A stretch of DNA of 64,000 bases from Candidatus Woesearchaeota archaeon (lineage in GTDB: Archaea > Nanobdellota > Nanobdellia > Woesearchaeales > GW2011-AR15), in NCBI GenBank assembly GCA_038874655.1, contig JAVZBY010000002.1:201711-265710 (forward strand), in the 5' to 3' direction. Each line of letters opens with the position of its first letter. Position 1 is the first letter of the stretch. Of the stretch, positions 1,221-64,000 are shown in pieces. Under the pieces are notes generated by a model. That model was not told the DNA's origin and made no database searches. It saw only the letters and a program-made list of their open reading frames with translations. Both the position numbers and the translations under genes were made by a program.

Positions 1221-2207
1221 ATGTCAAAACTTAAAATTTTTACAGGAACAGCACATCCAGAATTAGCTAAAAAAATTTGTAATTACTTAAATGTGCCTTT
1301 ATCAGAAATGATTATAAAAAGATTTCCAGATTCTGAAATTTATGTAAAATCAAAAGAAGTTGTTAGGGGAGATGAAATTTTCATTATACAACCAACTAGT
1401 AATCCAGTTAATGAAAATCTTATGGAATTACTTATTATGATAGATGCTTTTAAGAGAAGCTCAGTTGGAAAAATAAATGTTGTTATGCCTTATTTTGGTT
1501 ATGCAAGACAAGATAGAAGAGCCTCTGCAAGAGAACCAATAACAGCAAAATTAATTGCAAATTTATTAACAAAAGCAGGTGCAGATAGAATTATAACTAT
1601 TGATTTACATAGCCCTCAGATAGTTGGTTTTTTTGATATTGATGTTGACCATTTTGAAGCATATCCTTTATTTGCACAATACATAGTAAATAACTTTTCA
1701 AAAGAAGATTTAAATAACTTAGTGGCAGTAGCTTCTGATGCTGGATTTGTTAAAAAAACAAGAAAGTTTGCTAAATTATTAGATTGTCCTTTAGCAATTA
1801 TAGATAAAAGAAGACAATATCATAGTGAAGTTGATATTGTAAATGTCATTGGAGAAGTTGAAAATAAAATATGTATTTTATTGGATGATATGATAGACAC
1901 AGCAAACACAATTTCTGGAGGAGCAAACGCATTAATAGAAAAAGGAGCAAAAGAGGTTTATATATTTGCAACACATGCTGTTTTAAGCAATGATGCAGTA
2001 GAAAAATTAAAAAATTGTAAAGCAAAAGAGATTATCTTAACAGATACAATTCCTATTCCAAAAGAAAAGATGTTTGATAAATTAAAAATTTATTCTTTAG
2101 CTGAGATTCTAGCACAAGTTATAGAAAGAATTCATGATAAAAAATCATTAGGAGAATTATTTTCATGGGAGGAGAAAGTAGATGTCGCAAGTAAAAGAGA
2201 AGAATAA
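1221..2207 (+). CDS. prs: Ribose-phosphate pyrophosphokinase (class I-like)
   Basis: FPDSEIYV, PYFGYARQDRR, DLHSPQIVGFF, PRPP-binding LLDDMIDTANT, ATHAVLS. Confidence 0.95.
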   Translation: MSKLKIFTGTAHPELAKKICNYLNVPLSEMIIKRFPDSEIYVKSKEVVRGDEIFIIQPTSNPVNENLMELLIMIDAFKRSSVGKINVVMPYFGYARQDRRASAREPITAKLIANLLTKAGADRIITIDLHSPQIVGFFDIDVDHFEAYPLFAQYIVNNFSKEDLNNLVAVASDAGFVKKTRKFAKLLDCPLAIIDKRRQYHSEVDIVNVIGEVENKICILLDDMIDTANTISGGANALIEKGAKEVYIFATHAVLSNDAVEKLKNCKAKEIILTDTIPIPKEKMFDKLKIYSLAEILAQVIERIHDKKSLGELFSWEEKVDVASKREE

Positions 2208-5573: not shown

Positions 5574-6071
5574 ATGTTATATCTTCAAAGGCAATTTTTT
5601 AATTTTAAAATAACAAAACAAGATATTTTACTATATAAATCTCTTTTTTTAACATTTTTAGGGTTTTTATTATTTTTATTAGCAATAGTCAATAAAATAT
5701 TTTTTTTAAATAAAATTTACAAATCAAATTTTTTTATTGCTCTAGAAAATTATTATGTATTGTTTATTATGTCAGGTTTATTTCTTTTGATACTTGGCTT
5801 AATAATGCTATTTGTATGGAATTTTCGTAATAAATTACCTTATCAATCAAATTACACTTCTATGAATAAGCAAGTAATTAAAAAAGCAACCTTTTCAATT
5901 TATTTAATCACAGGTGTTTTTTTTGTTATGATGGGTTTTATTTTTTTATTTTTATTAAGATATAATAAAATAATTAAATTTCTCGCAATGGCTTTAAGCT
6001 TCACAGGCATATTTTTATTAATTATAGGGCTTTACCTTTTTTTGAAGTATATTTTTTTTCAAACGAGTTAA
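5574..6071 (+). CDS. Hypothetical membrane protein (about 4 TM helices)
   Basis: Four hydrophobic segments; 3' end overlaps the convergent RNase H gene by 50 nt. Confidence 0.65.
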   Translation: MLYLQRQFFNFKITKQDILLYKSLFLTFLGFLLFLLAIVNKIFFLNKIYKSNFFIALENYYVLFIMSGLFLLILGLIMLFVWNFRNKLPYQSNYTSMNKQVIKKATFSIYLITGVFFVMMGFIFLFLLRYNKIIKFLAMALSFTGIFLLIIGLYLFLKYIFFQTS

Positions 6072-6876
6072 GAAATTCAACCACATTTGAAAATTTTAAT
6101 TTTACAAAATCTTCAAAATTTAATGTCTTTTTTTTAATTTCTAATAATCCATTTTCAACATTAGAGCTTCCTAAGGGGATAAAAAATCCTGCTTTTTTTT
6201 CTAACTCTCTTATTTGTAATAATGCATAATATCTAGCTAATATTGAAGCTGCAGCAACTTCTAAGTATTTGGATTCTGCTTCTTTTTCTCTTATATCCCC
6301 CACAGAACAATTAGGATATAAATCAACAACATGTGTTATTTTACTATTTTTTGCTAATTTTTTATAGCATTTTTCATGTAATAAATCTAAAATTTCAGTC
6401 ATATTATATCTTAAATTTAGTTTATTAAACTCCTTTGGAAAAACACTTTCAACATGGTAATTGCTTGGAAACTTTTCTATTAAAACTTGTGCAATTCTAG
6501 TTATATCAGGATTTAATAATCTTTTAGAATCTTTAACACCAATTTCTTTTAATTGTTCTCTTATTTCATCATCAGCTTTAAAACCAGCAACAACAATCCC
6601 TCCAAAAGTATCTCCTTTTAAGCTTTCATCACTCCCTATAACTTCTCCTGAAATTTTTTTAGTGGGCTTATCTAAAATTTTTCTTATTAGTTCTTCTGCT
6701 TCAGTTATCCTGTTTTTTCTTCCTTGAATCTGTAAATTTCCATTTTTGTATAAAATTAAAGTAGCGTTTTTTCTATATCTTACAATCTCTTTACTTGATT
6801 TTGGTTCTCTTTTTTCATAACCATAATTTTTTAATTTTTCTAAATCTTTTTCAGTTACATGCTCTATTAAAACCAT
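6022..6876 (-). CDS. rnhC: Ribonuclease HIII (type 2 RNase H with N-terminal TBP-like domain)
   Basis: IGSDESLKGDTFGGIVVAG, GVKDSKRL, AESKYLEVAAASILAR, preceded by about 70 aa ending ATLILYKNGNLQIQG as in RNase HIII. Start may be GTG 6885. Confidence 0.8.
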   Translation of the reverse strand: MVLIEHVTEKDLEKLKNYGYEKREPKSSKEIVRYRKNATLILYKNGNLQIQGRKNRITEAEELIRKILDKPTKKISGEVIGSDESLKGDTFGGIVVAGFKADDEIREQLKEIGVKDSKRLLNPDITRIAQVLIEKFPSNYHVESVFPKEFNKLNLRYNMTEILDLLHEKCYKKLAKNSKITHVVDLYPNCSVGDIREKEAESKYLEVAAASILARYYALLQIRELEKKAGFFIPLGSSNVENGLLEIKKKTLNFEDFVKLKFSNVVEFLNSFEKKYTSKKGKAL

Positions 6877-6885
6877 TTTAACCAC

Positions 6886-7879: not shown

Positions 7880-10222
7880 ATGCAAATAGGCAAAATAGCA
7901 AAAAAATTAGCTGCCGTAAGCACTGGAGCATTAATGCTTGGTGCAACATTAACGGGAGCATTGGCTGCCTCATATAAATTGGCAGACTACCCAGCACCAT
8001 TCATAAAGAATGGCGTATTAGACAACACAGTTATAGTTGTCGGTAAAGCTGCAGCAACAGCAGATGTTGTTGGAGCAATTGATATAGCAGCAGCATTACA
8101 AGCAGAAGCTGTATCAAAAACTGCAGTAGAAGTAGGAGCAGTAGCACCAACAATTGATAATGGTGTAAAAATAGAAAGAAGCGGAAATAAGTTTAATTTT
8201 GACAATGATATCCAAGATGTTATGGATAAATTGACAAGAACAAACTTAGATTTACTAGAACAAGGAACCTTTAAAGACACAAAAGGTGATAATAGAGGTT
8301 CTCAAACATACAAACAAGAATTACAATTTTATGATGGATTTGGCACATTAATGTTAACACAGCCAAAAGACATGAAAGGTGGTGTTTACTTAGAAATGCC
8401 TAAAAAATCATCAACCTTTTACAGATACTCTTTGGACTTTGACACACCAAATAAATTGTCAACATCCAATACAGCAGATGACTTAAAAGGAAATTCTCTA
8501 GTTATACAAGGTAAAACTTATACAATCTCAGAAGTAAGTTTTGACAGTGCTAATAAAGTACAAAAAATGAAATTGCTTGCAGGAGACAGTTCAGTTTGGT
8601 TAACTCAAGACCAACCCTATACATTAGGAGAACATACTATAACTGTTGTTAGTGTTGAAGACAGTTCAAATCCAGCATGTGGCGTTAATGTAGATGGAGT
8701 CACAAAATGGATTGATCCAGGCACAACAGAAGAATTTAATGGTTTAAAAGTTGGTTTATTAAATGCAAAAGCAGTTAGATCAAAAGACTATGATAGAGAT
8801 GTATGTGAATTATCCTTAGGTTCAAGTGAAATTGTCTTAGAACAAGGAGAACCCGTAGAAGTAAATGGTTATGAAATAGATGGTTCATCAGTTTCTTTCC
8901 TAGGAAATGCATATGAATTTGATGGGTTTACAATTGATTTAAAAACAAACTACATGGATAAAAATATGTACTTGAAAGATGGACAAGCATGGACAGATCC
9001 TGTATTTGGTAACTGGAAAGTTGTTTATGCTGGTACAACTTCTAAAACAGAAACCATCAAAGTTGAATCATTAGGAGATAAAGCAGTATTAACCTTCTAT
9101 AATAGAGATGGTAAAAAAGTAGAAGTTCCATACTACTATGATGAAACAGCAGGAGCAGTATTCTTAGGTAATGATGAAGATGAAAGATTATTATTGCCAG
9201 GTGAATCACATACTTATACAGGAGACTATGATGTAGAAGGAACATTGTTCTTGTATTCAACTCCAGGTGGAGATGTACACTTATTACAAATGACAAGCTT
9301 AAAATGTGACTCTTCATCAAAGAATACAACAACAATTAAAGACTTAACATATGGAACAACAGTAGCAGAAAATGTTGAATTGGCAAATGACTGTAACAAT
9401 GTTGCAGAAACAATTGACATGGGCTCATTAGGACAATTAAAAGTAAATGTTACACCAAAATACATCTACTATGATCCAGCATATGGTTCAGGTAGCAGAT
9501 TTACAAAATATGAAGGTAACTTTACCTTTATGAACTCAACAACAGCAGTATTTACAGAAAAAGCAGGAGATGAATCTCAAGCAGGAGTATTAAGATATGA
9601 TTTAACTTATGACAATGATGACGATGAAATAAAGATAAATGTTCCAACATCTTTAACTTGGGTAAACAATGACCAAGGGGACAGTGATACAAGATGGGCA
9701 TTATTGGGAACAAGTGGACAAAGAAAAGGAAGTATTGTTAAATATGACAACAAGAACAAATTATCATTAGAAATAACCTACCCAGAAGACGATGTCTACG
9801 CAAATGTCTTTGTAGCTCCAGTTGATGCAGAACCAGTTGGAGGTTCAGCAGGTGGAGTAACAGCTGAAAAAGTCAATCCATTCAGTGTTGGATTAGCAGT
9901 ATTAGACACAGATGCAGCAAGCATGACCAAAAACATGATTGTTGTTGGTGGTCCATGTGCAAACACAGTTGCAGCTGAATTATTAGGCAATCCAACAAAC
10001 TGTGGAGAAGGCTTTGAACCTGGAAAAGCAATGTTGAAATTCTTTGACAGAAAAGGAAAAGCAGCATTACTTGTAGCAGGTTATGAAGCTGAAGAAACAT
10101 TAAACGCAGCTTATGTCTTAGCACAACATAACACAAAATACAAAGCAGACTTCGCTAAATTAAATGACGAAGTTGAGCTAGTTGTTGCAGACATGAGCAA
10201 AGTTGTGTTCAACACAGCTTAA
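7880..10222 (+). CDS. S-layer protein (Methanococcales-type N- and C-terminal domains)
   Basis: Signal peptide KIAKKLAAVSTGALMLGATLTGALA; LADYPAPF...IVVGKAAATADVVGAIDIAAAL; C-terminal MIVVGGPCANTVAAEL...LLVAGYEAEET; codon usage visibly less AT-skewed, as for a highly expressed gene. Confidence 0.9.
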   Translation: MQIGKIAKKLAAVSTGALMLGATLTGALAASYKLADYPAPFIKNGVLDNTVIVVGKAAATADVVGAIDIAAALQAEAVSKTAVEVGAVAPTIDNGVKIERSGNKFNFDNDIQDVMDKLTRTNLDLLEQGTFKDTKGDNRGSQTYKQELQFYDGFGTLMLTQPKDMKGGVYLEMPKKSSTFYRYSLDFDTPNKLSTSNTADDLKGNSLVIQGKTYTISEVSFDSANKVQKMKLLAGDSSVWLTQDQPYTLGEHTITVVSVEDSSNPACGVNVDGVTKWIDPGTTEEFNGLKVGLLNAKAVRSKDYDRDVCELSLGSSEIVLEQGEPVEVNGYEIDGSSVSFLGNAYEFDGFTIDLKTNYMDKNMYLKDGQAWTDPVFGNWKVVYAGTTSKTETIKVESLGDKAVLTFYNRDGKKVEVPYYYDETAGAVFLGNDEDERLLLPGESHTYTGDYDVEGTLFLYSTPGGDVHLLQMTSLKCDSSSKNTTTIKDLTYGTTVAENVELANDCNNVAETIDMGSLGQLKVNVTPKYIYYDPAYGSGSRFTKYEGNFTFMNSTTAVFTEKAGDESQAGVLRYDLTYDNDDDEIKINVPTSLTWVNNDQGDSDTRWALLGTSGQRKGSIVKYDNKNKLSLEITYPEDDVYANVFVAPVDAEPVGGSAGGVTAEKVNPFSVGLAVLDTDAASMTKNMIVVGGPCANTVAAELLGNPTNCGEGFEPGKAMLKFFDRKGKAALLVAGYEAEETLNAAYVLAQHNTKYKADFAKLNDEVELVVADMSKVVFNTA

Positions 10223-11690: not shown

Positions 11691-13805
11691 TTAGCTTATA
11701 CTTTTTTCTTCTTGTACATTAGTTATATGCTTAATTTTCTTTAAAATATCTATAGTCTTTATAAGTTCTTCATTACTTTCTGCTTTTATTTTTAAAGATA
11801 TTAAAATTGTTTTTTTATGTGGTTTTAAATTAATAGACAGAACATTAATCTTAAAATTACTTAACTGATTTAAAATATCCTCAACAATTCCTAATTTATC
11901 TTCAACATAAACATTGATTGTTTTAATCTGTTCTTTTGGCACATTCCAACAGACATTTACTTTTTTAGTTTTATCTAACGCGTGTATATTTGGACATTTC
12001 TCTTTATGCACTGAAATTGTACCATCTTTCATTCTATAAGCAACAATGGCATCATTAAACTGAGGATTACAGCATTTAGATAACTTTAATTGTCCCTTTT
12101 CCTCACAATATATATATTTTGCCAAATTAATTTTATCTTGCTCTTCTCTTAATTGTTTAGGATCTCGCTCTATTTCAATTCCCAATGCACTTCTAATCTT
12201 TTGTTTAGCTTTATTTGTCACAACAAAACTGAGCCAATTTCTTGATGGTTTTGCGTTTGGATTAGTAATAATATAAACAACATCCCCGCTTTTTAATTTA
12301 TAATCCAATGGAACCAATTTCTTATTAACTTGTGCTTTTGAACAAGTTTCTCCTATTTTTGAATGAACTTCAAAAGCAAAATCAACAGGAGTGGCATTTT
12401 CAGGTAAAATTATAGGATCTCCTTTAGGTGTAAAAACAACAATCTCATTCTCAAACAAATCAACCTTTAAAGAATCTAAAAATTCACTAGGAGCATTCTT
12501 TTTCCATTCTAAAACTTGTTCAAGCCAAGCAATTCTTTTATCAAAAGCTTTATCTCTCTCAGTTCCTTTATAACGCCAGTGTGCAGCAACCCCATATTTA
12601 GCTACTTGATGCATTTCTAGAGTTCTTATTTGAACTTCACAAATAGTATTAAAAGGAGTTACAACATCAGTGTGTAATGATTGATAACCATTTGACTTTG
12701 GAACTGCAATATAATCTTTAAATCTACCTGGAATTGGTTTCCATAATTGATGTATCTCAGCTAAAACCCTATAACAATCTGGTATAGTTTTAACAATAAT
12801 TCTGACAGCAATTAAATCATAAATCTCTTCAAAGCTTCTTTTTTCTAATATCATCTTCCTATAAATGCTATAAAAATACTTTGCTCTACCACTAACTTCT
12901 AAAAACTCAATATTAGATTCATTTAATTTCTTTTTAATCATATCCATAATAAGCTTTGCTTTTTTTTCTCTTTCAGCTCTTTTTTCATTAACTTTATTTT
13001 TTATATATTGATAAATATCTGGTTTTAAATACCTCAGAGATAAATCTTCCAATTCACCTTTCAAATTATACAATCCTAATTTATGAGCAATTGGAGCATA
13101 AATCTCTAGAGTTTCTTTAGCAATTCTTTGCTGTTTATCTTCTCTTAAATATTTCAATGTTCTCATATTGCTTAATCTGTCAGCCAATTTAATTAAAATA
13201 ACTCTAAAATCTTTTATAGTAGCTAAAAGAAGTTTTCTCCAATTTTCAGCTGTATAATCCTCTGGACTTTCAAAACTAGCTTTGTTTGTTTTTGTTTCTC
13301 CTTCAACTAAAGAAGCAACTTCTTCGCCAAACTCTTTTTTTATATCCTCTAAATTATATTCTGTTTCTTCAACAATGTCATGAAGCAAAGCAGCACATAT
13401 AGTAGCAGTATCAGGCTTATACTCTAAAAGAATTTTAGCAACAGAAACAGGATGCTCGAAATAATCTTTTCCAGATTCTCTTTTTTGTCCTTGATGGGCT
13501 TTTCTTGCAAAATTATATGCTTTTTCAATGAGCTTTAAATCTGCTTTTTTATCATAAGAAGCAACCTCATTTAAAATAAACTTTAATTCTTTATCAAAAT
13601 CCATAGGGATATCCTTTCTTTCAATTTCATCTAAAATTAAATCAACTTCATCTTTTTCTTTTAATAGATTATCATTCTCATTATTATTTTGGCTATTATT
13701 TAAACTATTATTTTCCTTATTTAATTCAGATTTATTAATTTCTTTTATCTCATCTATGTTATTACTTATACTTTTATTTAAATCATTGTTCATATAAATA
13801 GGCAT
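11691..13805 (-). CDS. rel: Long RelA/SpoT homologue, bifunctional (p)ppGpp synthetase/hydrolase-type
   Basis: HD domain (AHQGQKRESG, ALLHDIVEE, KLADRLSNMRTL), synthetase (RFKDYI, NGYQSLH, EVQIRT, GVAAHWRYK), TGS (FTPKGD...ATPVDFAFEVHS), zinc finger (SKCCNP...VHKEKC), C-terminal ACT. Confidence 0.95.
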   Translation of the reverse strand: MPIYMNNDLNKSISNNIDEIKEINKSELNKENNSLNNSQNNNENDNLLKEKDEVDLILDEIERKDIPMDFDKELKFILNEVASYDKKADLKLIEKAYNFARKAHQGQKRESGKDYFEHPVSVAKILLEYKPDTATICAALLHDIVEETEYNLEDIKKEFGEEVASLVEGETKTNKASFESPEDYTAENWRKLLLATIKDFRVILIKLADRLSNMRTLKYLREDKQQRIAKETLEIYAPIAHKLGLYNLKGELEDLSLRYLKPDIYQYIKNKVNEKRAEREKKAKLIMDMIKKKLNESNIEFLEVSGRAKYFYSIYRKMILEKRSFEEIYDLIAVRIIVKTIPDCYRVLAEIHQLWKPIPGRFKDYIAVPKSNGYQSLHTDVVTPFNTICEVQIRTLEMHQVAKYGVAAHWRYKGTERDKAFDKRIAWLEQVLEWKKNAPSEFLDSLKVDLFENEIVVFTPKGDPIILPENATPVDFAFEVHSKIGETCSKAQVNKKLVPLDYKLKSGDVVYIITNPNAKPSRNWLSFVVTNKAKQKIRSALGIEIERDPKQLREEQDKINLAKYIYCEEKGQLKLSKCCNPQFNDAIVAYRMKDGTISVHKEKCPNIHALDKTKKVNVCWNVPKEQIKTINVYVEDKLGIVEDILNQLSNFKINVLSINLKPHKKTILISLKIKAESNEELIKTIDILKKIKHITNVQEEKSIS

Positions 13806-23136: not shown

Positions 23137-23278
23137 GCGGATGTGCCGGAGTGGTCAAACGGGATAGGCTTAGGTGTGATGAGCCATATACTAAATTTTT
23201 AAATCAAAAAATAAGGGCAATGACATTAAGACACCTATTGGCTTAGTGCCTGCGCAGGTTCGAACCCTGCCGTCCGCA
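23137..23278 (+). tRNA. tRNA-Leu(UAG) with 58-nt intron at 37/38 (intron 23175-23232)
   Basis: Acceptor GCGGATG/CGTCCGC plus A; anticodon arm ATAGG-CTTAGG[intron]A-CCTAT; CTTA/TAAG central helix of a canonical bulge-helix-bulge; long variable arm; GCAGG-TTCGAAC-CCTGC. Confidence 0.94.
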
Positions 23279-52115: not shown

Positions 52116-52811
52116 TTAACCTAACTCAACATAAATAAAGTAAGTAGCAAATCCAGTTAATTTATCAACAGGAACTAATAATTGGAAATCTACTTCTGTG
52201 CCATTAAAACCGATTCTGTCATTTTCCATTAAAACTGTGTAAATTGTATTTGTTTCATTAGTGTTTAGTAATACATTCCAAAAAACAGCTTGTGCATTTG
52301 TACTATTATGTGTTCTTGTTGCCCTACAATTTGATAAAAATTTTCCAGCTATATCAAAACTAGGATGATTTGTGTAAATAAAAGTATCATTTATTCCATC
52401 AGAAGTTTCATTCATGATATTTAATCTTTCTTCTTCTAAATAAATTTCTGTTTGATTTGTGCATTTAACATTACTCCAGTCATTAACAAAATTTCTTGTT
52501 GCAATTATTTCTCCAATAGCATCAACAACATTCCAATCATAAAAAATATCTCCATTAGCATTTTCTAAAACAATTCCACCAGAAACTCTACCAAAAAAAC
52601 CTTGCCATACATTTGTTATTTGTGTTAAATCAGCATTAACCCAAGTAATATTTCCGTTTTGTGCTGTTAAATTTGTTGCATTTGAAATTGGTCTTCTTGA
52701 GGATTCTCCAATAATTAAATTAGCTCCAGAAGGTTCAGCAAATATATTTTTTATAAAAAAAACCAACAATAAAAAAACAAAAAAATATTTTACTTTATTT
52801 AATATATTCAT
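52116..52811 (-). CDS. Secreted beta-rich surface glycoprotein, function unknown
   Basis: Signal peptide; WQGFFGRVSG and VDFQLLVP motifs; nine N-x-T sequons; two Cys. Confidence 0.75.
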   Translation of the reverse strand: MNILNKVKYFFVFLLLVFFIKNIFAEPSGANLIIGESSRRPISNATNLTAQNGNITWVNADLTQITNVWQGFFGRVSGGIVLENANGDIFYDWNVVDAIGEIIATRNFVNDWSNVKCTNQTEIYLEEERLNIMNETSDGINDTFIYTNHPSFDIAGKFLSNCRATRTHNSTNAQAVFWNVLLNTNETNTIYTVLMENDRIGFNGTEVDFQLLVPVDKLTGFATYFIYVELG

Positions 52812-53362
52812 AATCCCACCCTCTTTAAAAAATTGTGATAATTGCCAATTTGAAATTTATTAGCAGAAAATTTAAAATTCTGTAAAATTTGAAAAACTCT
52901 AAACTCACTTAAATCTAAATTTTTTGCAATATTTTCAATAAAAACACCATTCAAATAAGCATGTAAAACATGATAATATCTCAATTTTATAGGATTGAAA
53001 TTTGAATCATAATCTTTTGTGTAGTATCTTATAATTTGATTTACTCTTTTTTCAGAAATATTTTTACCTTGTCTTGAAAAAAACAAAAAATCTTCTTTTG
53101 CTAGTTTATTTCCTTCTATGAATAATGATAAATCCTTAGCTAATTTTCCACTGATTAAAACAAACCTATTATTTAATCTTATTTTATTGCCCAAAATATC
53201 TTTAATTTTTATATTAACTAATTCATTTGGCAAGCAACCTGTCTCATAAAGAACTCTAAAAATCAAATTATCTCTGGCATTTTTAATATTTGAAATTATT
53301 TCTCTAATCTCTTTCATAGATAAAAAAATTTCTTTGTTGTATGATTTTATGACAGGAACCAT
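52808..53362 (-). CDS. Tyrosine recombinase-like catalytic-domain protein, active site degenerate
   Basis: RDNLIFRVLYETGCLPNELVNIKIKDI (box I), SRQGKNISEKRVNQII, NPIKLRYY...GVFIENIAKNL (box II). Confidence 0.75.
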   Translation of the reverse strand: MVPVIKSYNKEIFLSMKEIREIISNIKNARDNLIFRVLYETGCLPNELVNIKIKDILGNKIRLNNRFVLISGKLAKDLSLFIEGNKLAKEDFLFFSRQGKNISEKRVNQIIRYYTKDYDSNFNPIKLRYYHVLHAYLNGVFIENIAKNLDLSEFRVFQILQNFKFSANKFQIGNYHNFLKRVGL

Positions 53363-53807: not shown

Positions 53808-53882
53808 TAGCGGGGGAAAGATTTGAACTTCCGACCTTTGGGTTATGAGCCCAACGGGCACTCCTAGCTGCCCTACCCCGCT
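53808..53882 (-). tRNA. Initiator tRNA-Met(CAU)
   Basis: A1-U72 acceptor AGCGGGG/CCCCGCT, three consecutive G-C pairs in TTGGG-CTCATAA-CCCAA. Confidence 0.95.
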
Positions 53883-54868: not shown

Positions 54869-56989
54869 ATGATGAATTCAAAAGAAGAAAAACAATATGA
54901 TTTAAGAAAGCAAGAAAATTCAAACAATAAATATGAAAAAACAAAAGAGTCTTTTTCTGAAGGTCAAAGTCAGCAAAATATCCCATTAACTTTAAATGAT
55001 TTAGACCTATCAAAATTAAACTTACCAAAAGAAACTAAAGAAAGATTAGAAGAAATAAAGAAAAAATTAGAGAGATTTCAAAAAGAGGTTTTAGAAAAAT
55101 TTGATAAATATATAATGGGAATAGCATTATTACCTCCTAGAAAACAAGGAGCACAAAATCCTTTAGGTAATTTGCCTTTACCTTTGCCTAATATACCAAA
55201 TTTACCGAATTTTGGATTACCAAATCAAAATTTACCAGGATTATCACCATTAATTCCAGGAATACCAAATTTTATGCCATTTACGCAATCAACTTTACAA
55301 ACACCAGCTAATTTACCAAATTTAAACAATTCACCTACTTTAAATCCAACACAAGGTCCTGTAGTACAAGAAAATAAAAATGAACTTAGAACATTAGTTT
55401 TAGTAGATGATAGTGATAGTCAAAAGATGACTAAAATAGAATTAAAAGCAAAATTATCTCAAATCATAATAGGAATTGCAAATAATATTGACAAAAACAT
55501 TTGGGTTGAAACCTTATTGTTAAGTGAATTATGGGAAAATTGTTATGATGGTAAATATGAAACATTAAGTTTAATAGCTTCTGGAACACCTGTTTATGAT
55601 ACAGGGATGTTAGCAGCAATAAAAATAGCAGAAGTCCATAAGCAAATGGTTTTAGCAAAGTTTGAAAAATATATTGTTTGTTATGTTCTAGCTGGTAGCC
55701 TAGTTCAAGGAAAAGCAACAAAAGATTCTGATATTGATGTTTTTGTAGTAATTGATGATACCGATGTTAAAAAAATGTCTAGATTTGAGTTAAAAGAAAA
55801 ATTAAGAGCAATCATTATAGGAATGGGTTTAGAAGCAGGAGAACTAACAGGAATAAGAAATAAAATTAACATTCAAGTTTATATCTTAACAGATTTCTGG
55901 GAAAACATAAAAGAAGCAAATCCAATAATCTTTACATTTTTAAGAGATGGTATTCCTTTTTATGACAGAGGAATTTTCATGCCTTGGAAACAATTGTTAA
56001 AAATGGGTAAAATAAAACCAAGTCAAGAGGCAATTGATATTTTTATGCAATCAGGCGATCAATTAATGAAAACAGTTGATTTTAAATTAAAAACAATAGG
56101 TATGGAAGATACATTTTATGCAATATTAACTCCAAGTCAAGCAGCAATTATGTTATATGGTATTGCTCCTCCAACACCAAAAGAAACACCAGAAATAATG
56201 AGAGAAATTTTCGTTAAAAAAGAAAAATTACTAGAAGAAGAATATGTGGAAATTTTAGAAAAGAACATAAAAATTAGAAAAGACTTAGAACATGGAACAA
56301 AAAAAGAATTAACAGGAAAAGAAGTTGATGAATTAGTTGAAAATGCAAAAAAATACTTAAAAAGAATTGAGAAATTATTTAAGCAAATAGAAAAAGTAAA
56401 AGAAGAAGAATCTCTTATTAATACTTATGAGACAACATTAACAATTGTAAAAGATGTCTTAAAATTAGAGGGCATAGAAAAAATAAAAGAAAAAGAAGTT
56501 TTGGAATTATTTGAAACAGCTTTAATAGATACAGGAAAAATACCTCATAAATATTTGAGAGAATTAAAAGATATCATAAAAGCAAAAGAAGATTATGATA
56601 ATGGCAAATTAACAAAAACAGATATTTCAAAAGTTAATAAATCAAGTAAGGAATTTCATAATTTCTTAATAGAATACATACATAAAAAAAGAGGCGCAGA
56701 ATTAGAAAAAGCAAAAATTAAAGTAAAATATGGTGATAAATTTGGTGAAGTTATTTTACTAGACAAAGTAGCATTTATAATACATGATATAGACTCAAAA
56801 GATAAAAAAATTAGTAAAGCAGACCTAGAAAATGGTAATTTAATAAATATAAGAGAGACTACACAAGAAGAATTAGAAAAAGCATTGGCAGAAATGAAAA
56901 TTCCAGAAAATGTATTTTTAAAAAATAATTTATTTAACAATTTAAGTGAATTATTTGGTAATGATGTTGAGATATTAGTAAAAAATTAG
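54869..56989 (+). CDS. Multidomain nucleotidyltransferase-HEPN protein (degenerate NTase, intact NTase, HEPN, helical tail)
   Basis: VLAGSLVQGKATKDSDIDVFVVIDD; HEPN-like FYAILTPSQAAIML...IRKDLEHG (RxxxxH); first repeat lacks the GS motif and carries a Pro/Asn/Leu insert. Confidence 0.8.
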   Translation: MMNSKEEKQYDLRKQENSNNKYEKTKESFSEGQSQQNIPLTLNDLDLSKLNLPKETKERLEEIKKKLERFQKEVLEKFDKYIMGIALLPPRKQGAQNPLGNLPLPLPNIPNLPNFGLPNQNLPGLSPLIPGIPNFMPFTQSTLQTPANLPNLNNSPTLNPTQGPVVQENKNELRTLVLVDDSDSQKMTKIELKAKLSQIIIGIANNIDKNIWVETLLLSELWENCYDGKYETLSLIASGTPVYDTGMLAAIKIAEVHKQMVLAKFEKYIVCYVLAGSLVQGKATKDSDIDVFVVIDDTDVKKMSRFELKEKLRAIIIGMGLEAGELTGIRNKINIQVYILTDFWENIKEANPIIFTFLRDGIPFYDRGIFMPWKQLLKMGKIKPSQEAIDIFMQSGDQLMKTVDFKLKTIGMEDTFYAILTPSQAAIMLYGIAPPTPKETPEIMREIFVKKEKLLEEEYVEILEKNIKIRKDLEHGTKKELTGKEVDELVENAKKYLKRIEKLFKQIEKVKEEESLINTYETTLTIVKDVLKLEGIEKIKEKEVLELFETALIDTGKIPHKYLRELKDIIKAKEDYDNGKLTKTDISKVNKSSKEFHNFLIEYIHKKRGAELEKAKIKVKYGDKFGEVILLDKVAFIIHDIDSKDKKISKADLENGNLINIRETTQEELEKALAEMKIPENVFLKNNLFNNLSELFGNDVEILVKN

Positions 56990-57776: not shown

Positions 57777-57862
57777 AATTTATTTTTTGAAATATTTTAT
57801 TTTACTTATTATTACTCTTAAATAACAATATCTTTAAATATAATTTATTTTTTTTTTAACTT

Positions 57863-59458
57863 ATGTCATTAGAGGAAAGAGTTGCAAAAGCAGCATTAAA
57901 AATTATAGGTAAAACTATAAGAAATTTAGTTATTGGAGGGACAATAGCAGTAGGATTATTATATGGTGGTTATAGGTTAGGTTTGATTAAAGTTCCTTTA
58001 TTAGATCAATATAATCAACCATCAATATCAACTGTTGAACAGATGCAAAAGCAATTTTCTCAAGAAATAGAAAGTTTAGGAAATTTAATGACAGGAAATT
58101 GGGACTATGGTAATAGTCAAGAAGTAACATTACCAAGTGGACAAACAGTTGAATTAAAACAATTAGAACCAATTACTTACAATGTAATAGATATATTTAA
58201 CAGTTCTGCTCAACAAAGTATACCTATTGCAATAAGTAGCAGTAATCCTGGTGCTTGTCAACAACCTTCTTTATGTATAATTTTTTATACAAATATACCT
58301 ACACAACCACAAAATTATTTTTTTTTACCTTCATTTGCAAACACTATTCTAAGTTATTGGAAAGGTGATATTGGACTTTTAGATTTTTTGAATAATTTAT
58401 ATAAATCACCAATCCCGGGCTTAAAAGATATATTAGATTCATTTAATTTATTAATAGTTAATTTAAAGGGTGGGGAAGAAATTAAATTTGTAACTTTAAT
58501 TCAGCCAAATGGTAACATAAATTTACAAGAAATTGGAAGTACAGAAATTAATGAGATAGCATTACAGAATGGAAAAAATTATTATGAGATTCCTGGTGTT
58601 GTTTTAGAAACAAAAGTAGGTTTTCCTTTAAGTAGTATATCTGCAAACACAACTGATGCTTATAATGGAAATGCTATTATCTCTTTTCAAACATTAACTG
58701 TATTACCTAAAAATCTAAGACCTGAAACTTATTTTTCAAAACCTGCTTCCACTCCGGAAGAACATGAAAAAAGATTAGTAAATTATATCCAAGAGATTAG
58801 CAAATATGGATTAGTATCAATATCAATAAAACAAGAATATGAAGCAAACAGGCAAGTTGTTATAGTTTTTCCTGAATCTGGAATTGATGTTTCACAATTT
58901 GATATGTTAGGAAGATTCCCAAATGCAGTAGAATTAATTTATTTAAATGATGGTGATCCTAATAATCCAAATAGAAATAACGAATTATTAAAATATTGGA
59001 GAAGTTCACAAGGTCCAAATAAACAAACAACACTGGTTTCTGCTTATCAAGATTTGAGAAATTTAAGACAAACATCTTGTCAAGTTGCTCAATGGTTAAA
59101 AGAGGATGGCTTTAATGTTCAACCAGGAATTAGTGAGCCATGTTATGAGCCAAATGGACAAATTCAAAGGCCTGATTGGCTTGATTTATATGAGCAAAGA
59201 TTAAAAGAAGAACAAGCAAAATTAGTACAACAATCAATAGAAACTATTACTAATGCTATTCCTCAAATGCCTGATTTATGCGCAATGTGGACAGACAATG
59301 CAAGAAATTTATTAGGTCCTGATTGCAAACAAACTAATTCACAAACATTAAAAGTCTATGTTCCTGAGAATATGGTATCTTTATTACAAGCTTGGGCACA
59401 AATGTATCAAGCAACTTTTGGCGGCACAATTGAAATTTTACCATTGCCTCAACAATAG
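57863..59458 (+). CDS. Membrane-anchored hypothetical protein
   Basis: Single N-terminal TM helix (LVIGGTIAVGLLYGGY), Gln/Pro-rich, six Cys; no recognised family. Confidence 0.75.
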   Translation: MSLEERVAKAALKIIGKTIRNLVIGGTIAVGLLYGGYRLGLIKVPLLDQYNQPSISTVEQMQKQFSQEIESLGNLMTGNWDYGNSQEVTLPSGQTVELKQLEPITYNVIDIFNSSAQQSIPIAISSSNPGACQQPSLCIIFYTNIPTQPQNYFFLPSFANTILSYWKGDIGLLDFLNNLYKSPIPGLKDILDSFNLLIVNLKGGEEIKFVTLIQPNGNINLQEIGSTEINEIALQNGKNYYEIPGVVLETKVGFPLSSISANTTDAYNGNAIISFQTLTVLPKNLRPETYFSKPASTPEEHEKRLVNYIQEISKYGLVSISIKQEYEANRQVVIVFPESGIDVSQFDMLGRFPNAVELIYLNDGDPNNPNRNNELLKYWRSSQGPNKQTTLVSAYQDLRNLRQTSCQVAQWLKEDGFNVQPGISEPCYEPNGQIQRPDWLDLYEQRLKEEQAKLVQQSIETITNAIPQMPDLCAMWTDNARNLLGPDCKQTNSQTLKVYVPENMVSLLQAWAQMYQATFGGTIEILPLPQQ

Positions 59459-59582
59459 TCAATCAATTAAAGTATTTTTTCTTCTCTTCATATTAATAAA
59501 ATAAAGTTAAAAAACAAATACTTATAATGTTATTACTAATAAATAGTAAAATTTATATAATGGTTTTTATTTTTTTAAAATA

Positions 59583-61253
59583 ATGAAAAGAATTAAAGGA
59601 TATTATAATTCTAGCAATAAAGGAGTAGAATCAAGATTATTGCAACCTTTGAGAGTAAAACCAAAAAGAAGAGAAAAGCAATCAAAAGAACAATTAATAA
59701 AGAGAGACCATTTACCAATAAGAATTGAGAATCCTCCTTATGAAATACAAGGTAATTTAAATCAATGGTTATATTCTTGGGCTTTATATTTAAATGAAAA
59801 TTTGATTAATTTAGTTTGTGAAATAACAAATACAACACAACCACCAGGAGATATAAATGAAATAATTAGTAATACCCAATTAAATATGGAAGAGGTTATT
59901 GAAAGATTATTAAATTTTAGAGAAAATTTACCAAAACCACCAGAATTTTTAAGATCTTATTTAACAGACCAACAAAAAAGAAAACATCAAAGATGGATTA
60001 ATTATTATAATGAAAGATGGAAAAATGCAAGAAATACTGTTGATAATTTATTATATGGTTATGGACTCTTTGAATGGAGAAACTTTGCAAATGCATTTAA
60101 TAAATTTTATAATCCTCACCAGACTAATTTACAAATACAAAATCCAGAGCATAATCAAAAATTTAATAATATATACAACCACTTTTTTAATTGTTTAAAA
60201 ATAAACCTAAGCCTTGCCTCAAGAAATAATATAAGATATAGGGGTATAAATTATGCAGAAAAAAGCAGAAATAACTTATTAAACTTAGTTGATATTTATC
60301 ACCAAAGAATTTTGCCTGAAGGAATTAAATTGAATAAATTAACTTTAGATAATTTCTTTGATGTTTTTGATGCTATATTGGATGAACATTCTTTAAGAAG
60401 GGAAAAAGGACAAAATAAACATTTCTTAGAGGAATTAGCTTCAAGATTTAGTAATTATTATTTTAGTGAGTTTGCTTTTGCTTCTATGGTTTTAAATATA
60501 CAAATACCAAGTCAAATATCACCAGAACAATATGAACAGATAAAAACAAATTTAACTTCTGCATATGCTCTTGTTCATAAAGTTTTAGAAAAGGCAATTG
60601 AATTAAAAAAAAGAGAAAAACATAAAGAGTTTTATGGAAAAATTGCTGATTTTTTTATTTCTTATGGCTTAGATATTTTAAGTAAGTATTTTTCACAATT
60701 TTTAAATTTTAATGCTGTTGATATTGAAACAGCTGTTAGCAATTATTTATTTTTAATTCAAGCTTTACCTGAAAAAAAGAAGGAGATCTCTACAATTATT
60801 GATAAAAGTTTATATTTTGAAATTCAAAGATTAATTGATTATAATACCCAACTAAATAAAGAATTTAAACCAGAGTTTTATAATGCTGTTTTAGATTATG
60901 CAAGAAAAACAAAAAATGCATTTGATAAATTAAAAGAATATTGCCTAAATAATGAAAATAATAATGAATCTAATTTAAGCATTATTGTAAAAGGAGGAGT
61001 TTTAGGATTAACTATTCAATATATACAAATTGCAGGATTAGGTATTGTTAATAATTTGATTGAAGTTAATGAAGTTGTTCAATATATTAAAAGCATTATT
61101 GAAGAGCCTTTTTTTAATCAAGATGAGAGATTTATGCAAAGATTTAATGATCTGTTATTACAAAGCACAACTTATTTTGCACAATTAGGTGCTAGATATC
61201 CTGAGACACATTCTAAATTTGAAGAATTTTACACTAAATTACAAAAAGTTTAA
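59583..61253 (+). CDS. Hypothetical helical protein
   Basis: 556-aa ORF with own TATA-like box; no recognised motif. Confidence 0.75.
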   Translation: MKRIKGYYNSSNKGVESRLLQPLRVKPKRREKQSKEQLIKRDHLPIRIENPPYEIQGNLNQWLYSWALYLNENLINLVCEITNTTQPPGDINEIISNTQLNMEEVIERLLNFRENLPKPPEFLRSYLTDQQKRKHQRWINYYNERWKNARNTVDNLLYGYGLFEWRNFANAFNKFYNPHQTNLQIQNPEHNQKFNNIYNHFFNCLKINLSLASRNNIRYRGINYAEKSRNNLLNLVDIYHQRILPEGIKLNKLTLDNFFDVFDAILDEHSLRREKGQNKHFLEELASRFSNYYFSEFAFASMVLNIQIPSQISPEQYEQIKTNLTSAYALVHKVLEKAIELKKREKHKEFYGKIADFFISYGLDILSKYFSQFLNFNAVDIETAVSNYLFLIQALPEKKKEISTIIDKSLYFEIQRLIDYNTQLNKEFKPEFYNAVLDYARKTKNAFDKLKEYCLNNENNNESNLSIIVKGGVLGLTIQYIQIAGLGIVNNLIEVNEVVQYIKSIIEEPFFNQDERFMQRFNDLLLQSTTYFAQLGARYPETHSKFEEFYTKLQKV

Positions 61254-61307
61254 TTACTACTATAAAATAACAATAAATTTAAATATATTCTTTTTTTTAT
61301 CCTTAAA

Positions 61308-63443
61308 ATGCTCTTTTCATTAAAAAGAATTGTTCAAGTAGGTTTGTTATTAAGTGGATTATTTATTTCACTTTATAATACGGGTTTAGCAAACTCTTTT
61401 GATTTAATTAATCCACAATCTCAACAGCCACCTGCATGTGAAATTTTTCAAAATTATGATCCAAAATCAGCACCAACAGAAATTAACGAAATTTTTTCAG
61501 ATCCTAATTTTCAAAACGCAATTTGTTCTTTAAAAGGAAGTGTGCTTATAGTTGATAGTGAAGGTAAGGAAGTAAACTATTTAGATTTTAATCCATATGG
61601 AGAGACAGGAGGATATAGATATTTAACAGTTAAATTTCCTAAAATAGTTTTGACACCATTGATTAATTTTGAGTCAATACCTCCTTCTTTTGAAAATAAG
61701 GCAATAGGTCCATCAGGATTTCATATGGGCGCAGATTATACAAGTATTTTATATGATCCTACAGGAGAGTATACAATTATAGATTCAAATGGAAATAAAA
61801 TTCCAATTAACATTCATAGAATGCAAGCATTCTTTAAAAGACCAGAGGGATTAGAAGCAACAATAGTAGAAGAAACATGGCCACAGGGTTATGGTAAAAA
61901 TGGAATATTAATAAAACTTGGTAGTTATAATGATTGGGAATTACAATTAAGAATTGGACATGGGATTTTTCCTAATCAAAATGCTTTAATTGAAGATGAA
62001 GATGAAATAAAACAAATATTAGATTATTTAAATCAACAAATTAAAGAAAATCCAGAAAAATTTGTTCATGTAGCTGATTCAGGAATGGAAGGTGCAGCAA
62101 ATGGACATCCTCATTATCATGTAGAGCTTTCTTTATTAAATCCTAAAACAGGAAGACGTGTTTTTTTAGATCCTACCTTTACTGTAATTTTAAATCAACA
62201 TCCTGAAAACGTTTCTTCAATAAATAATTTAGTAGAACAAAAAAAACTTTCAGATAATGATTTAGTTAATGAATATATTGAATTTCTAAGACAAAGCCCT
62301 GAAGCAAGAGCACTTTTATTAACTATTGCGAGAAATGAAAGTGGATATAACTTTGATGCTAAAAACCCTAATTCAAGTGCTTATGGTTTTTTTCAAATTA
62401 TTGATTCAACAAATCAAGAACTTAATAAAAAAGGTTTTCCAGATAATAATAATAATAAAGAAACACAATTAGCAAAAGGTGCTTATCTTTTGGAGAGTAG
62501 AATAAAATTATATACTACTAAAGACCCAACAACATTTTTAAAAGAATTAACAAAAGAAGAACTTATTGATTTTTTAAATAAAGAATTACAGTGTGAATGG
62601 GCAGGAACACCAGGCACTTGTTTACAATCTAGAGGTTTTAATAATCAATATTATCCAGAAAATTATGGTTTTTCATCTTGGGAAAAAGCTCAAGAAGAAT
62701 TCTGGGAAACTTACAAAATACATTTAGAAATTTCTAAAAAAGGAGAAGATTTAATATCAACATTAATAGGAGAGGTTCAATTACCAAATGAAAGAGAAAG
62801 TGCATCTGAAATATCTTTAATAGATTATCTCAAACAACATCCAGATTTAGTTTTAGTTAATAACACTTTTAGAAAACAAGGTGTAAAAGGTCCTGAAGAA
62901 TGTAGAGAGGGAGAACTTTGGTTTATGGAAGGGAGTTTAAGACAAACACCTTTACCAGAAAAAGCAAATGCTTATACTTGTAATAAGGGACATTGGGACG
63001 AAATTCAAACTTTTAATCTAGAAGGTGTTAATTTAGAAGACTATACAAATAAAAGAGTACTACCTGATACACAGCAACAACAGTATAAACTTCCAGATTA
63101 TTTAAGAAATAGTCTTCAAATAAGTGGTGATGGTAGTGTTATATTTAACCCAAAGGAGCAATGGTTTCCAAATTATGAACAAAATCCTTTTTCATTTTTC
63201 TTGATTCCTGAAATAGACCAAGAAGGAAAAATACCTTTTTATCAAATACAAATTGCACCAGGTGTAATCTTAACTTTTAGAAAAGAAGAAGGCTCATTTA
63301 ATCTTTCAGAAATTTTTGATTTACAAAGAGAAATTTATTCCTCTTTAATGAATAGAGAAAATATTGAATTAAACTATGGAAGGTTAGTCAAAATTGAATT
63401 ACCTTATAGTGAATTTGAAGAATTAATATTAAAAAATCCATAA
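61308..63443 (+). CDS. Secreted M23 peptidase plus lysozyme-like (SLT/muramidase) fusion, probable peptidoglycan hydrolase
   Basis: Signal peptide; M23 motifs FHMGADY (HxxxD), LRIGH, HPHYHVEL (HxH), FLDP; lysozyme-like IARNESG, SAYGFFQII, EWAGTPG. Confidence 0.8.
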   Translation: MLFSLKRIVQVGLLLSGLFISLYNTGLANSFDLINPQSQQPPACEIFQNYDPKSAPTEINEIFSDPNFQNAICSLKGSVLIVDSEGKEVNYLDFNPYGETGGYRYLTVKFPKIVLTPLINFESIPPSFENKAIGPSGFHMGADYTSILYDPTGEYTIIDSNGNKIPINIHRMQAFFKRPEGLEATIVEETWPQGYGKNGILIKLGSYNDWELQLRIGHGIFPNQNALIEDEDEIKQILDYLNQQIKENPEKFVHVADSGMEGAANGHPHYHVELSLLNPKTGRRVFLDPTFTVILNQHPENVSSINNLVEQKKLSDNDLVNEYIEFLRQSPEARALLLTIARNESGYNFDAKNPNSSAYGFFQIIDSTNQELNKKGFPDNNNNKETQLAKGAYLLESRIKLYTTKDPTTFLKELTKEELIDFLNKELQCEWAGTPGTCLQSRGFNNQYYPENYGFSSWEKAQEEFWETYKIHLEISKKGEDLISTLIGEVQLPNERESASEISLIDYLKQHPDLVLVNNTFRKQGVKGPEECREGELWFMEGSLRQTPLPEKANAYTCNKGHWDEIQTFNLEGVNLEDYTNKRVLPDTQQQQYKLPDYLRNSLQISGDGSVIFNPKEQWFPNYEQNPFSFFLIPEIDQEGKIPFYQIQIAPGVILTFRKEEGSFNLSEIFDLQREIYSSLMNRENIELNYGRLVKIELPYSEFEELILKNP

Positions 63444-63476
63444 TCTTTAAATATAAAAATTTACTACCACTATAAA

Positions 63477-64000
63477 ATGACAGATTATTATTTTTTGGCA
63501 ATACCTGTTGAATTAATTTTGGAAAAAAAAAATGAATTAAATGAGCAGGATCCAGTTAAATTTAATTCACTTGACTCTTGCGTTAGTCAAGAGGAAACAT
63601 TTAACTCTTGGGTTAGTGGAAGAAAAGGTGCTGGTTTAAATTTAAAACAAGATCCATATAATCTTTGGTGGAGAATATTTTCTTTGTTAAATCTTTTACC
63701 AGATAGTTTTATCCCAATAGCAACCTTAAGAGTTATTACATCTGAGAATCGAAATCCATTTTTACCAGAAAGAGGGAATTATGTTGGTGTTATAATTAAA
63801 AGTGAAGAAAAACCGACTTTTGAGTCTGATAGAATAAAGGTATATGGCTTAGAAAGTGCTGGTATTGTAGTTGATGAAAAAGTAGATGATAAAAGAAACC
63901 CACATTTAACAATTTTACATTCTAATTCTAGTAGATTAGATAGTGGGAATGACTTACTAAATTTATTAAAAATATATGTAACTAATTTTGGGATTTCTTC
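63477..64000 (+). CDS. Hypothetical protein, 3'-truncated by the window edge
   Basis: Open frame from ATG 63477 (MTDYYFLAIPVEL) to the end of the window; TTTAAATA at 63446-63453. Confidence 0.65.
   Translation, partial: MTDYYFLAIPVELILEKKNELNEQDPVKFNSLDSCVSQEETFNSWVSGRKGAGLNLKQDPYNLWWRIFSLLNLLPDSFIPIATLRVITSENRNPFLPERGNYVGVIIKSEEKPTFESDRIKVYGLESAGIVVDEKVDDKRNPHLTILHSNSSRLDSGNDLLNLLKIYVTNFGIS

Follow-up and report, generated by a model that had tools for sequence, protein, structure and literature searches.

PGH711, a predicted exported protein with an SLT domain and an M23-like domain in a genomic island of a Woesearchaeota-type archaeon

We examined a 64,000-nucleotide stretch of DNA (here, the window) from a Candidatus Woesearchaeota archaeon (GenBank assembly GCA_038874655.1, contig JAVZBY010000002.1, positions 201,711 to 265,710). 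Near its end lies a gene for a predicted protein of 711 amino acids (aa), PGH711, which forms part of a five-gene island. The gene is real and archaeal, and its product looks exported and carries one confirmed and one probable murein-cutting domain. On balance, we favor the view, held with moderate confidence, that PGH711 is an exported or anchored two-enzyme hydrolase that this Woesearchaeota-type archaeon uses on bacterial peptidoglycan.

A preliminary, sequence-only reading had proposed an open reading frame (ORF) at this location, together with five named motifs. The ORF is present on the + strand with an ATG start, and all five motifs are found in its translation: HMGAD (aa 139-143), HYH (aa 269-271), IARNESG (aa 340-346), GFFQ (aa 360-363) and EWAGTPG (aa 430-436). 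Coordinates of the gene, its domains and its neighbors are given in Table 1.

Table 1. Features of PGH711 and the surrounding island. Positions are those of the window unless marked L001 (window coordinate = L001 coordinate + 52389).
Feature	Position	Strand	Basis or remark
PGH711 gene, 711-aa predicted exported dual hydrolase	61308..63443	+	ORF list, translation; ATG start; third of five island genes
Predicted Sec-type signal peptide or signal anchor, aa 1-28	61308..61391	+	Hydrophobicity and sequence reading
M23/LytM-like domain, aa ~110-295	61635..62192	+	Motifs, MAFFT alignment, ESM Atlas neighbors
Candidate residues H139 and D143 (HMGAD)	61722-61736	+	In M23-like domain
Candidate motif GYGKNG (aa 194)		+	In M23-like domain
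Candidate residue H218	61959-61961	+	In M23-like domain
Candidate residues H269 and H271 (HYH)	62112-62120	+	In M23-like domain
SLT/GH23 lytic transglycosylase domain, aa 317-484, with GFFQ and CEWAGTPG extension	62256..62759	+	Pfam PF01464, alignment A2; catalytic Glu344 at 62337-62339
C-terminal region, aa 485-711, conserved Cys/Trp positions, possible targeting module	62760..63440	+	Aligns with P0003
Island, part within the window	57789..64000	+	Total ~8.6 kb, ~2.4 kb of it past the window end
p531	57863-59458	+	First island gene
p556	59583-61253	+	Second island gene
p520	from 63477	+	Fourth island gene
NAGPA-domain protein, 451 aa	L001 12647..14002	+	Just past the window end; PF09992, E 2.7e-19
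Promoter-like 46-nt element with TTTAAATA	61253..61298	+	Just upstream of PGH711; direct repeat D3 (L001 8864-8909)
Second copy of the 46-nt element, 83% identity	57808-57853	+	Upstream of p531; D3 (L001 5419-5464)

Domain architecture of PGH711

The lysozyme-like domain with a catalytic glutamate that had been proposed for PGH711 is confirmed, at the level of sequence, as an SLT/GH23 lytic transglycosylase domain. The Pfam SLT model (PF01464) matches aa 334-403 with an E value of 1.2e-7 and 31.7 bits, above its gathering score of 21.3. In the genome-wide search the locus scores 35.1 bits and is the sole SLT match in the genome. PGH711 was compared exhaustively by phmmer with 1.84 billion representatives, which gave 14 proteins, itself among them, with E ≤ 0.001; of the other 13, twelve span the SLT domain only. 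The best of these matches, P0002, is a 233-aa protein from a Candidatus Woesearchaeota metagenome-assembled genome, named by NCBI as an SLT-domain protein. It is 45% identical to PGH711 across aa 317-484, the CEWA.PG extension included. All nine sequences of alignment A2 share residues E, S, N, A, G, Q and T; these include E344-S345, G360 and Q363, positions that also align with gp144 of phage phiKZ.

The solved structures nearest to the A2 profile are the endolysin gp144 of phiKZ (PDB 3bkh, E 4e-9) and Slt70 of E. coli (1qsa, E 1.6e-5). Both share with PGH711 the catalytic E-S and the S-S-A-x-G-x-F-Q stretch, but only ~55-65 residues align, and from CEWAGTPG onwards PGH711 has no solved counterpart in this search. 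The resemblance of EWAGTPG to a motif of lambda-type muramidases, suggested earlier, found no support among the best 60 of the 290 PDB matches of the domain profile, from which lambda lysozyme is missing. The W-x-x-x-P-G stretch also occurs in the tape-measure-like proteins P0012 and P0014. A C-terminal AYNxG-type motif is a mark of Slt70-type (family 1) lytic transglycosylases. Because the Pfam match ends at position 84 of the 117 in the model, and direct reading of PGH711 finds no AYNxG-type motif after GFFQ, we assign the domain at the SLT/GH23 level only. A scan of viral contigs with alignment A6 yielded seven loci with 36-55 residues in common, at 43-53% identity.

Upstream of the SLT domain, an M23-type zinc endopeptidase domain is probable. 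PGH711 carries the family motifs in the family order, with neighboring residues typical of the family: HxGxD, GYG, a histidine that ends a hairpin, and G..G...G.PHxHxE. Unsupervised MAFFT alignment with 28 M23 domains from the phylum gives 18 columns that are conserved in at least 24 of these domains, and PGH711 matches the consensus in 11 of them. The columns of H139, G141 and D143 (HxxxD motif) show the conserved residue in 28, 26 and 28 of the 28 domains, and those of H269 and H271 (HxH motif) in 28 and 27. The loose pattern HxxxD ... HxH is found in 11 of the 3167 open frames of the genome and so is not diagnostic alone. The tight pattern HxGxD ... PHxHxE, which was picked after the sequence had been seen, is found in PGH711 only (1 of 3167). 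The sole relative of the M23-like part, a fragment designated P0003, keeps MEGAAN.HPHYH.ELS (HPHYH[VI]ELS).

Structural comparisons point the same way. All seven structure-neighbor rows of the ESM Atlas model of PGH711 are PF01551 (M23) clusters, with TM scores of at most 0.57 over 131 residues. An AF2 model built with the M23 alignment reaches a mean confidence (pLDDT) of 54, and its best Foldseek match is LytM (E 0.03). With VIA, the top 35 rows are all LytM/M23 domains (Z 5.1-8.7), after which Z falls to 3.0; the best row is the LytM domain of DipM (Z 8.7, root-mean-square deviation 4.3, 134 residues aligned), and the LytM domain of PrgK (8s0u) is also among the matches (Z 5.2). This model is not independent evidence because its alignment consists of M23 domains. 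The hairpin at aa 199-217 is among the parts of highest model confidence (10-residue block means of 83 and 72), and for most of this stretch (aa 199-213) the M23 alignment contained no homologues. Its strands, modeled at aa 199-207 and 210-217, would fit H218 (in RIGHG) at the end of the second strand. The domain also carries a helical insertion of ~30 aa (aa ~225-255). We consider an M23-type fold for aa ~110-295 likely, and somewhat favor the view that the domain is an active peptidase. The M23 endopeptidase domain proposed earlier is thus retained as probable on its metal-binding and catalytic motifs and on Atlas neighbors that are all M23, but no profile hidden Markov model (HMM) detects it. 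We call the domain M23-like rather than a member of PF01551 because no profile score exceeds a curated cut-off.

PGH711 starts with MLFSLKR, in which K6 and R7 form an n-region, followed by a hydrophobic stretch (aa 2-20 are flagged in a Kyte-Doolittle window) and a GLA/NS site. The N-terminus reads as a Sec-type signal or signal anchor, and the signal peptide proposed earlier stands as a prediction for an exported-looking protein. By eye, neither PGH711 nor its four island neighbors has a prepilin-like leader (short, charged and ending in Gly, Ala or Ser).

At the other end of the protein, aa 485-711 have no Pfam match over threshold, and an ESM Atlas query with aa 490-711 gave no usable match. 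P0003 passes from the end of the M23-like part directly into this C-terminal region without an SLT domain, so two older parts of PGH711 appear to have been separated by insertion of the SLT domain as a module.

PGH711 as a whole is extremely divergent. Besides generic SLT matches, the phmmer search recovered only two relatives. A word-based homologue search with the whole protein recovered the query alone, and phmmer against PDB sequences, with the whole protein or aa 101-321, found nothing relevant. PGH711 had no match in 60 relatives, nor in 400 phylum genomes. Scans for related loci in genome contigs (with PGH711 and P0002), viral contigs (with PGH711) and metagenome contigs (with alignment A5) also found no relative.

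Host genome and the five-gene island

The genome is 1.26 Mb in 17 contigs, with ~24.5% G+C and an estimated completeness of 97%; PGH711 lies on a 274-kb contig. No archaeal small-subunit rRNA was found in the assembly, in which no rRNA is assembled, so the lineage rests on protein markers. These support the DPANN archaeal host that had been proposed, and mark it as Woesearchaeota-type. Among the window genes are matches to archaeal PheT (504 bits) and to class-I ProS (627 bits), and one gene product carries a Methanococcus-type S-layer signal. The nearest ProS is 84% identical and its source is named Candidatus Woesearchaeota archaeon; most of the other named rows are Woesearchaeota or Nanoarchaeota.

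The island is an insertion into a conserved gene order. In three congeners and two other family members, a gene for a 706-aa nucleotidyltransferase is followed by a 230-aa HExxH gene (hexxh230), three genes of ~170 aa, and phosphoglucose isomerase. Here, the five island genes sit between hexxh230 and the first ~170-aa gene (par171a). In the five loci of relatives that have both flanks, hexxh230 lies next to par171a, with no insertion; the island limits follow a boundary alignment. The five island genes had no tblastn match in eight loci of relatives, and among the genomes searched the island is found only in this one. Its proteins have no paralogues elsewhere in the genome, barring a weak NAGPA match.

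PGH711 and p520 are separated by 33 nt, and p520 and the NAGPA gene overlap by 4 nt, so these three genes are probably co-transcribed. The element with TTTAAATA upstream of PGH711 is presumably an archaeal TATA box. None of the five ORFs is disrupted, and every one of them is either preceded by a promoter-like element or coupled to an adjacent gene. p531 and p520 look membrane-anchored; p556 has no hydrophobic segment.

The evidence indicates that the locus is native and soundly assembled. Archaeal core genes, syntenic with those of relatives, flank the island on both sides. Independent Logan contigs from run X1, possibly the source sample, cover L001 3500-7434 and 11429-14580 with 0 differences. 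Both island junctions are bridged, and the assembly is therefore sound rather than a misassembly that includes bacterial DNA. G+C at third codon positions (GC3) is 0.09-0.13 in the island, against 0.134 ± 0.02 across 483 long frames genome-wide; codon positions 1 and 2 account for the slightly raised island G+C. No flanking direct repeats were found at the island, and the other four island proteins have no PHROGs or NCBIfam matches (no integrase, capsid or terminase). The earlier concern that the region might be proviral or misassembled bacterial DNA is thus largely allayed: the island is inserted, but there is no proviral match, codon use is native and the junctions are bridged. We conclude that it is an accessory insertion, either long-resident or derived from DPANN archaea.

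A second run (X2), from the study to which X1 belongs, contains identical stretches of the island, and short stretches with ~93-97% similarity are present in runs from two further studies (X3 and X4). All four runs are labeled as hot springs metagenomes, and no RNA run is among the sequencing runs listed. Low-depth contigs provide the variation data, with at least 24 differences within the gene and 37 more counted across the aligned stretch. Among the 24 listed, 21 codons are changed and 19 of the changes alter the amino acid. One PGH711 variant has a 15-nt insertion that preserves the frame, and one change converts IARNES to IARHES, a form found in relatives. At most, these data hint that the protein evolves rapidly while its reading frame is maintained.

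Several neighboring genes deserve mention in their own right. The island NAGPA protein is hydrophobic near its N-terminus and has a linker rich in Pro and Thr, resembling that of its neighbor p520, and a second NAGPA (PF09992) gene occurs elsewhere in the genome (G000:C3:40870-41415, -). In a set of 14 control genomes, PF09992 matched bacteria only (8 of 14). The 706-aa protein (window 54869..56989, +) has a central nucleotidyltransferase domain of the Pol-beta type; the 20 relatives searched all have it, with identities of 56-83%, and in 19 of them there is also a shorter paralogue that is ~30% identical. The three tandem ~170-aa genes (L001 14065..15666, +, past the window end) have no family match. 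The second and third are clear paralogues (27% identity, E 4e-21), and the first shows no significant similarity. The trio follows the island insertion point directly, and both congeners and family members preserve its order. A 184-aa ORF of the phage integrase family (window 52808..53362, -) lies ~450 nt from a tRNA-Met gene (53808..53882, -). We considered this pair as an integration module for the island and rejected it, as the ORF is ~4.4 kb upstream, beyond conserved core genes, and is probably unrelated to the island.

The sequence-only reading had also pointed to bacterial-type Rel, RNase HIII and Prs in the window. The first and last hold (Rel 666 bits, Prs 420.7 bits), but RNase HIII scores 106.5 against a cut-off of 161.2. 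The three genes lie at 11691..13805 (-, RelA/SpoT protein), 6022..6885 (-, RNase HIII-like) and 1221..2207 (+, Prs), and the Prs score is to PRK01259, against 223.6 bits to the archaeal-type model. A 142-nt Rfam tRNA match (23137..23278, +, 43.6 bits), for which ARAGORN reports no tRNA, is probably an intron-containing archaeal tRNA. In several related archaea, ProS is longer (630-730 aa) owing to neither the same length nor the same domains as in the window: it has an extra PF03483 or PF04073 domain (for example P0031, P0033 and P0044), both of which are missing from the 483-aa window ProS. G+C peaks at 0.344, against ~0.25, in window 8001..10000, over a gene for a 783-aa protein, the N-terminus of which gives the S-layer signal match noted above (TIGR01564, 43.4 bits).

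Proposed mechanism and alternative explanations

What might an archaeon do with such a protein? No Mur ligase, SEDS or penicillin-binding protein (PBP) family was found in the genome, the completeness of which is estimated at 97%; the same searches matched 13, 10 and 10 of 14 reference genomes, respectively. Because no genes for murein synthesis were found, the substrate is expected to be foreign, and a bacterial wall is the most sensible one. In the mechanism that we favor, a Sec-type signal would export PGH711 or anchor its N-terminus. The divergent LytM/M23-like zinc endopeptidase domain, with His218 as a candidate catalytic residue, would cut peptide stems or cross-bridges. The SLT/GH23 domain, acting through Glu344, would cut the bond between N-acetylmuramic acid (MurNAc) and N-acetylglucosamine (GlcNAc), leaving 1,6-anhydroMurNAc ends. 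The cysteine-bearing tail of ~225 residues may target the enzyme, whose role would be to open the bacterial wall at a contact site or to lyse bacteria. The downstream neighbors that are probably co-transcribed with it include a putative membrane-anchored NAGPA phosphodiester glycosidase, which suggests a multi-enzyme wall-degrading set. The sequence-only reading had proposed that the organism may breach or scavenge bacterial walls and so have a bacterial host or prey. A bacterial substrate is indeed the most sensible, but host is not distinguished from prey or scavenging.

Several results weigh against this proposal, most of them bearing on the M23-like domain. PF01551 had no match at E ≤ 1 on PGH711 or its locus, and an HMM built from the 28 M23 domains of the phylum scored 2.8 bits, a value equalled by 33 of 2000 shuffles. 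Comparison with the same 28 domains by hhalign aligned 19 columns around HxH with an E value of 0.069. Searching the protein database with aa 61-321 returned nothing at E ≤ 10, and the eight matches of the N-terminal part in 400 phylum genomes (E 0.037-0.09) are at chance level. The single-sequence AF2 model of aa 31-500 has a pLDDT of 40 and is unusable. The MAFFT alignment pairs H218 with a different conserved His column, and the residue in the YxH column is Tyr240, which leaves the second catalytic His ambiguous. Beyond this domain, Pfam finds no wall-binding domain (LysM, PG_binding, SH3 or similar) in PGH711. AnmK was not found in the genome and MurQ had no match over the cut-off, so that the canonical anhydro-muropeptide route was not found; for this reason, breaching or killing is weakly favored over feeding on amino sugars. 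The genome also carries a second, small M23 gene (G000:C1:267971-268195, -; locus L004 1312..1794, -), a 160-aa ORF within a 297-aa open frame. It has the motif GIHLHFE and a Pfam score of 29.4 bits against a cut-off of 28.7, over model positions 32-91 only, the C-terminal two thirds.

The failed or marginal profile tests and the ambiguous second catalytic His could also mean that only the SLT domain is enzymatic. The N-terminal part would then have a non-M23 fold, or be a LytM domain with a binding or regulatory rather than a cutting role, as in EnvC, NlpD, DipM and PrgK; degenerate LytM domains (DipM, EnvC and PrgK) are among its structural matches. Degenerate domains of this kind lack metal ligands, whereas H139, D143, H269 and H271 of PGH711 are all present in conserved columns, and PHYH[VI]ELS is kept in P0003. 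We regard a non-cutting N-terminus as a minority possibility.

The proposal that PGH711 is a two-enzyme hydrolase could be extended to the whole island, as a transferable kit for demolishing bacterial walls by which the strain would become an attacker or episymbiont of (Gram-positive) bacteria in hot springs. The NAGPA glycosidase would remove wall polymers linked by phosphodiester bonds, teichoic acids for instance, and the kit would be completed by three orphan proteins. Should this be true, the excess of amino-acid-changing differences among strains would reflect an arms race. Literature matches for phosphodiester glycosidase and cell wall include, among those listed, none on bacterial or archaeal NAGPA function. 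We consider this extension unlikely.

Could the island instead be the cargo or remnant of a mobile element or virus, with a hydrolase that is associated with virions or transfer and has no present role in the archaeon? Its five genes are inserted relative to five relatives, PGH711 is unmatched in the 60 relatives and 400 phylum genomes, and the SLT part shows similarity to tail-fibre, transglycosylase and tape-measure families in PHROG, to the tape-measure-like P0012 and P0014 and to viral contigs. However, the absence of PHROG matches to the other four proteins and of flanking direct repeats, the native codon use, and the five intact ORFs with their promoter-like elements or coupling are not what such an origin predicts, and a virus or plasmid of a wall-less archaeon has no need for a murein hydrolase. 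A provirus in particular is rejected, as there are no hallmark genes. Mobile cargo is, in our view, improbable.

We also weighed a substrate other than murein, such as envelope glycans or glycine-rich proteins of an archaeal host, pseudomurein or chitin-like material. To our knowledge, validated DPANN hosts are all archaeal, and PGH711 has a putative C-terminal targeting region without a fold lead and no murein-binding domain by Pfam. Yet both catalytic families are murein-specific in nearly all characterized members, and the nearest solved relatives are murein lytic transglycosylases. The beta-1,3 glycan bond of pseudomurein resists lysozyme-type enzymes. In Strock et al. 2025 (PMC12352652), only two archaeal peptidoglycan hydrolase (PGH) homologues come from pseudomurein-making classes. 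A non-murein substrate therefore seems quite improbable. An autolysin for a murein-like wall of the archaeon itself, or misbinned bacterial DNA, is scarcely credible, being contradicted by the failure to find murein synthesis genes on the one hand and by the position between archaeal core genes in conserved order, the host-like GC3 and the bridged junctions on the other.

PGH711 among peptidoglycan hydrolases of the phylum

The rarity implied by the sequence-only reading does not hold, as both domain families are common in the phylum. PF01551 matches occur in 145 of 401 sampled genomes (134 over the cut-off) and PF01464 matches in 184 of 351, a tally that takes in one unpublished genome (G276). 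Among control genomes, at these thresholds, M23 matched 10 of 14 and SLT 8 of 14, all of them bacteria, and none of the four archaeal controls matched. At least nine phylum genomes encode M23 and SLT in one open frame, in the order M23-SLT (G254, G056, G238, G364 and G184) or SLT-M23 (G088, G059, G035 and G308). The 595-aa protein of G254 (G254:C5, L043 673..2460, -), from the same DPANN order, has a hydrophobic or transmembrane anchor followed by M23 and SLT domains, in the same order as PGH711. Its domains are readily recognized by Pfam (M23 88.5 bits, SLT 75 bits) and include GLMQ and AAYNGG, whereas the M23 part of PGH711 is invisible to Pfam. The two proteins have no detectable similarity (best BLASTP E 2.4), and PGH711 has an extra tail of 225 aa.

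The combination is also familiar from elements that breach bacterial walls. Phage phi29 gp13 and PrgK of the plasmid pCF10 carry a lysozyme-like and a LytM/M23 domain on one polypeptide and pierce the wall locally. PGH711 likewise joins a lysozyme-like to an M23-like domain, but its island shows no phage or transfer genes.

Large extracellular proteins with murein-like lytic transglycosylase domains (fam00969) have been described in Woesearchaeota and Pacearchaeota, with the suggestion of bacterial episymbiosis (Castelle et al. 2021, PMC8204110), and GH23 genes in Woesearchaeota have been interpreted as predatory (Vigneron et al. 2022, PMC9723730). Like PGH711 as predicted here, these Woesearchaeota proteins are extracellular and carry an SLT/GH23 domain, and their inferred target is likewise a bacterial wall. 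They reach 3000 aa and form a lineage-widespread family, whereas PGH711 has 711 aa and is island-borne.

More broadly, Strock et al. 2025 detected PGH homologues in 175 of the 3706 archaeal genomes that they surveyed (PMC12352652). Nanoarchaeota are especially well represented, and M23 homologues occur in four genomes of Nanoarchaeia. The paper describes two M23 peptidoglycan hydrolases with reported killing activity, Woldo and Danwoldo, from Halogranum salarium. Like these, PGH711 would be an archaeal M23-type enzyme aimed at bacteria, in its case by prediction. Woldo and Danwoldo pair M23 with PG_binding_1, whereas PGH711 has a second catalytic domain and no recognized binding domain. PGH711 thus falls outside the modular archaeal PGHs as defined in that paper, which combine a catalytic and a wall-binding domain. 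Surveys based on Pfam M23 or on binding domains would miss or under-call PGH711 because it is so divergent.

That such archaea may attach to or attack bacteria has already been proposed in print, and the kind of protein described here is known and common in the phylum. New are the particulars: the extreme divergence, the strain-specific island and the NAGPA neighbor. PGH711 is an accessory gene, on an island absent from congeners, and opens no new question. Rather, it adds one more well-delimited case for the published idea that some Woesearchaeota interact physically with bacteria.

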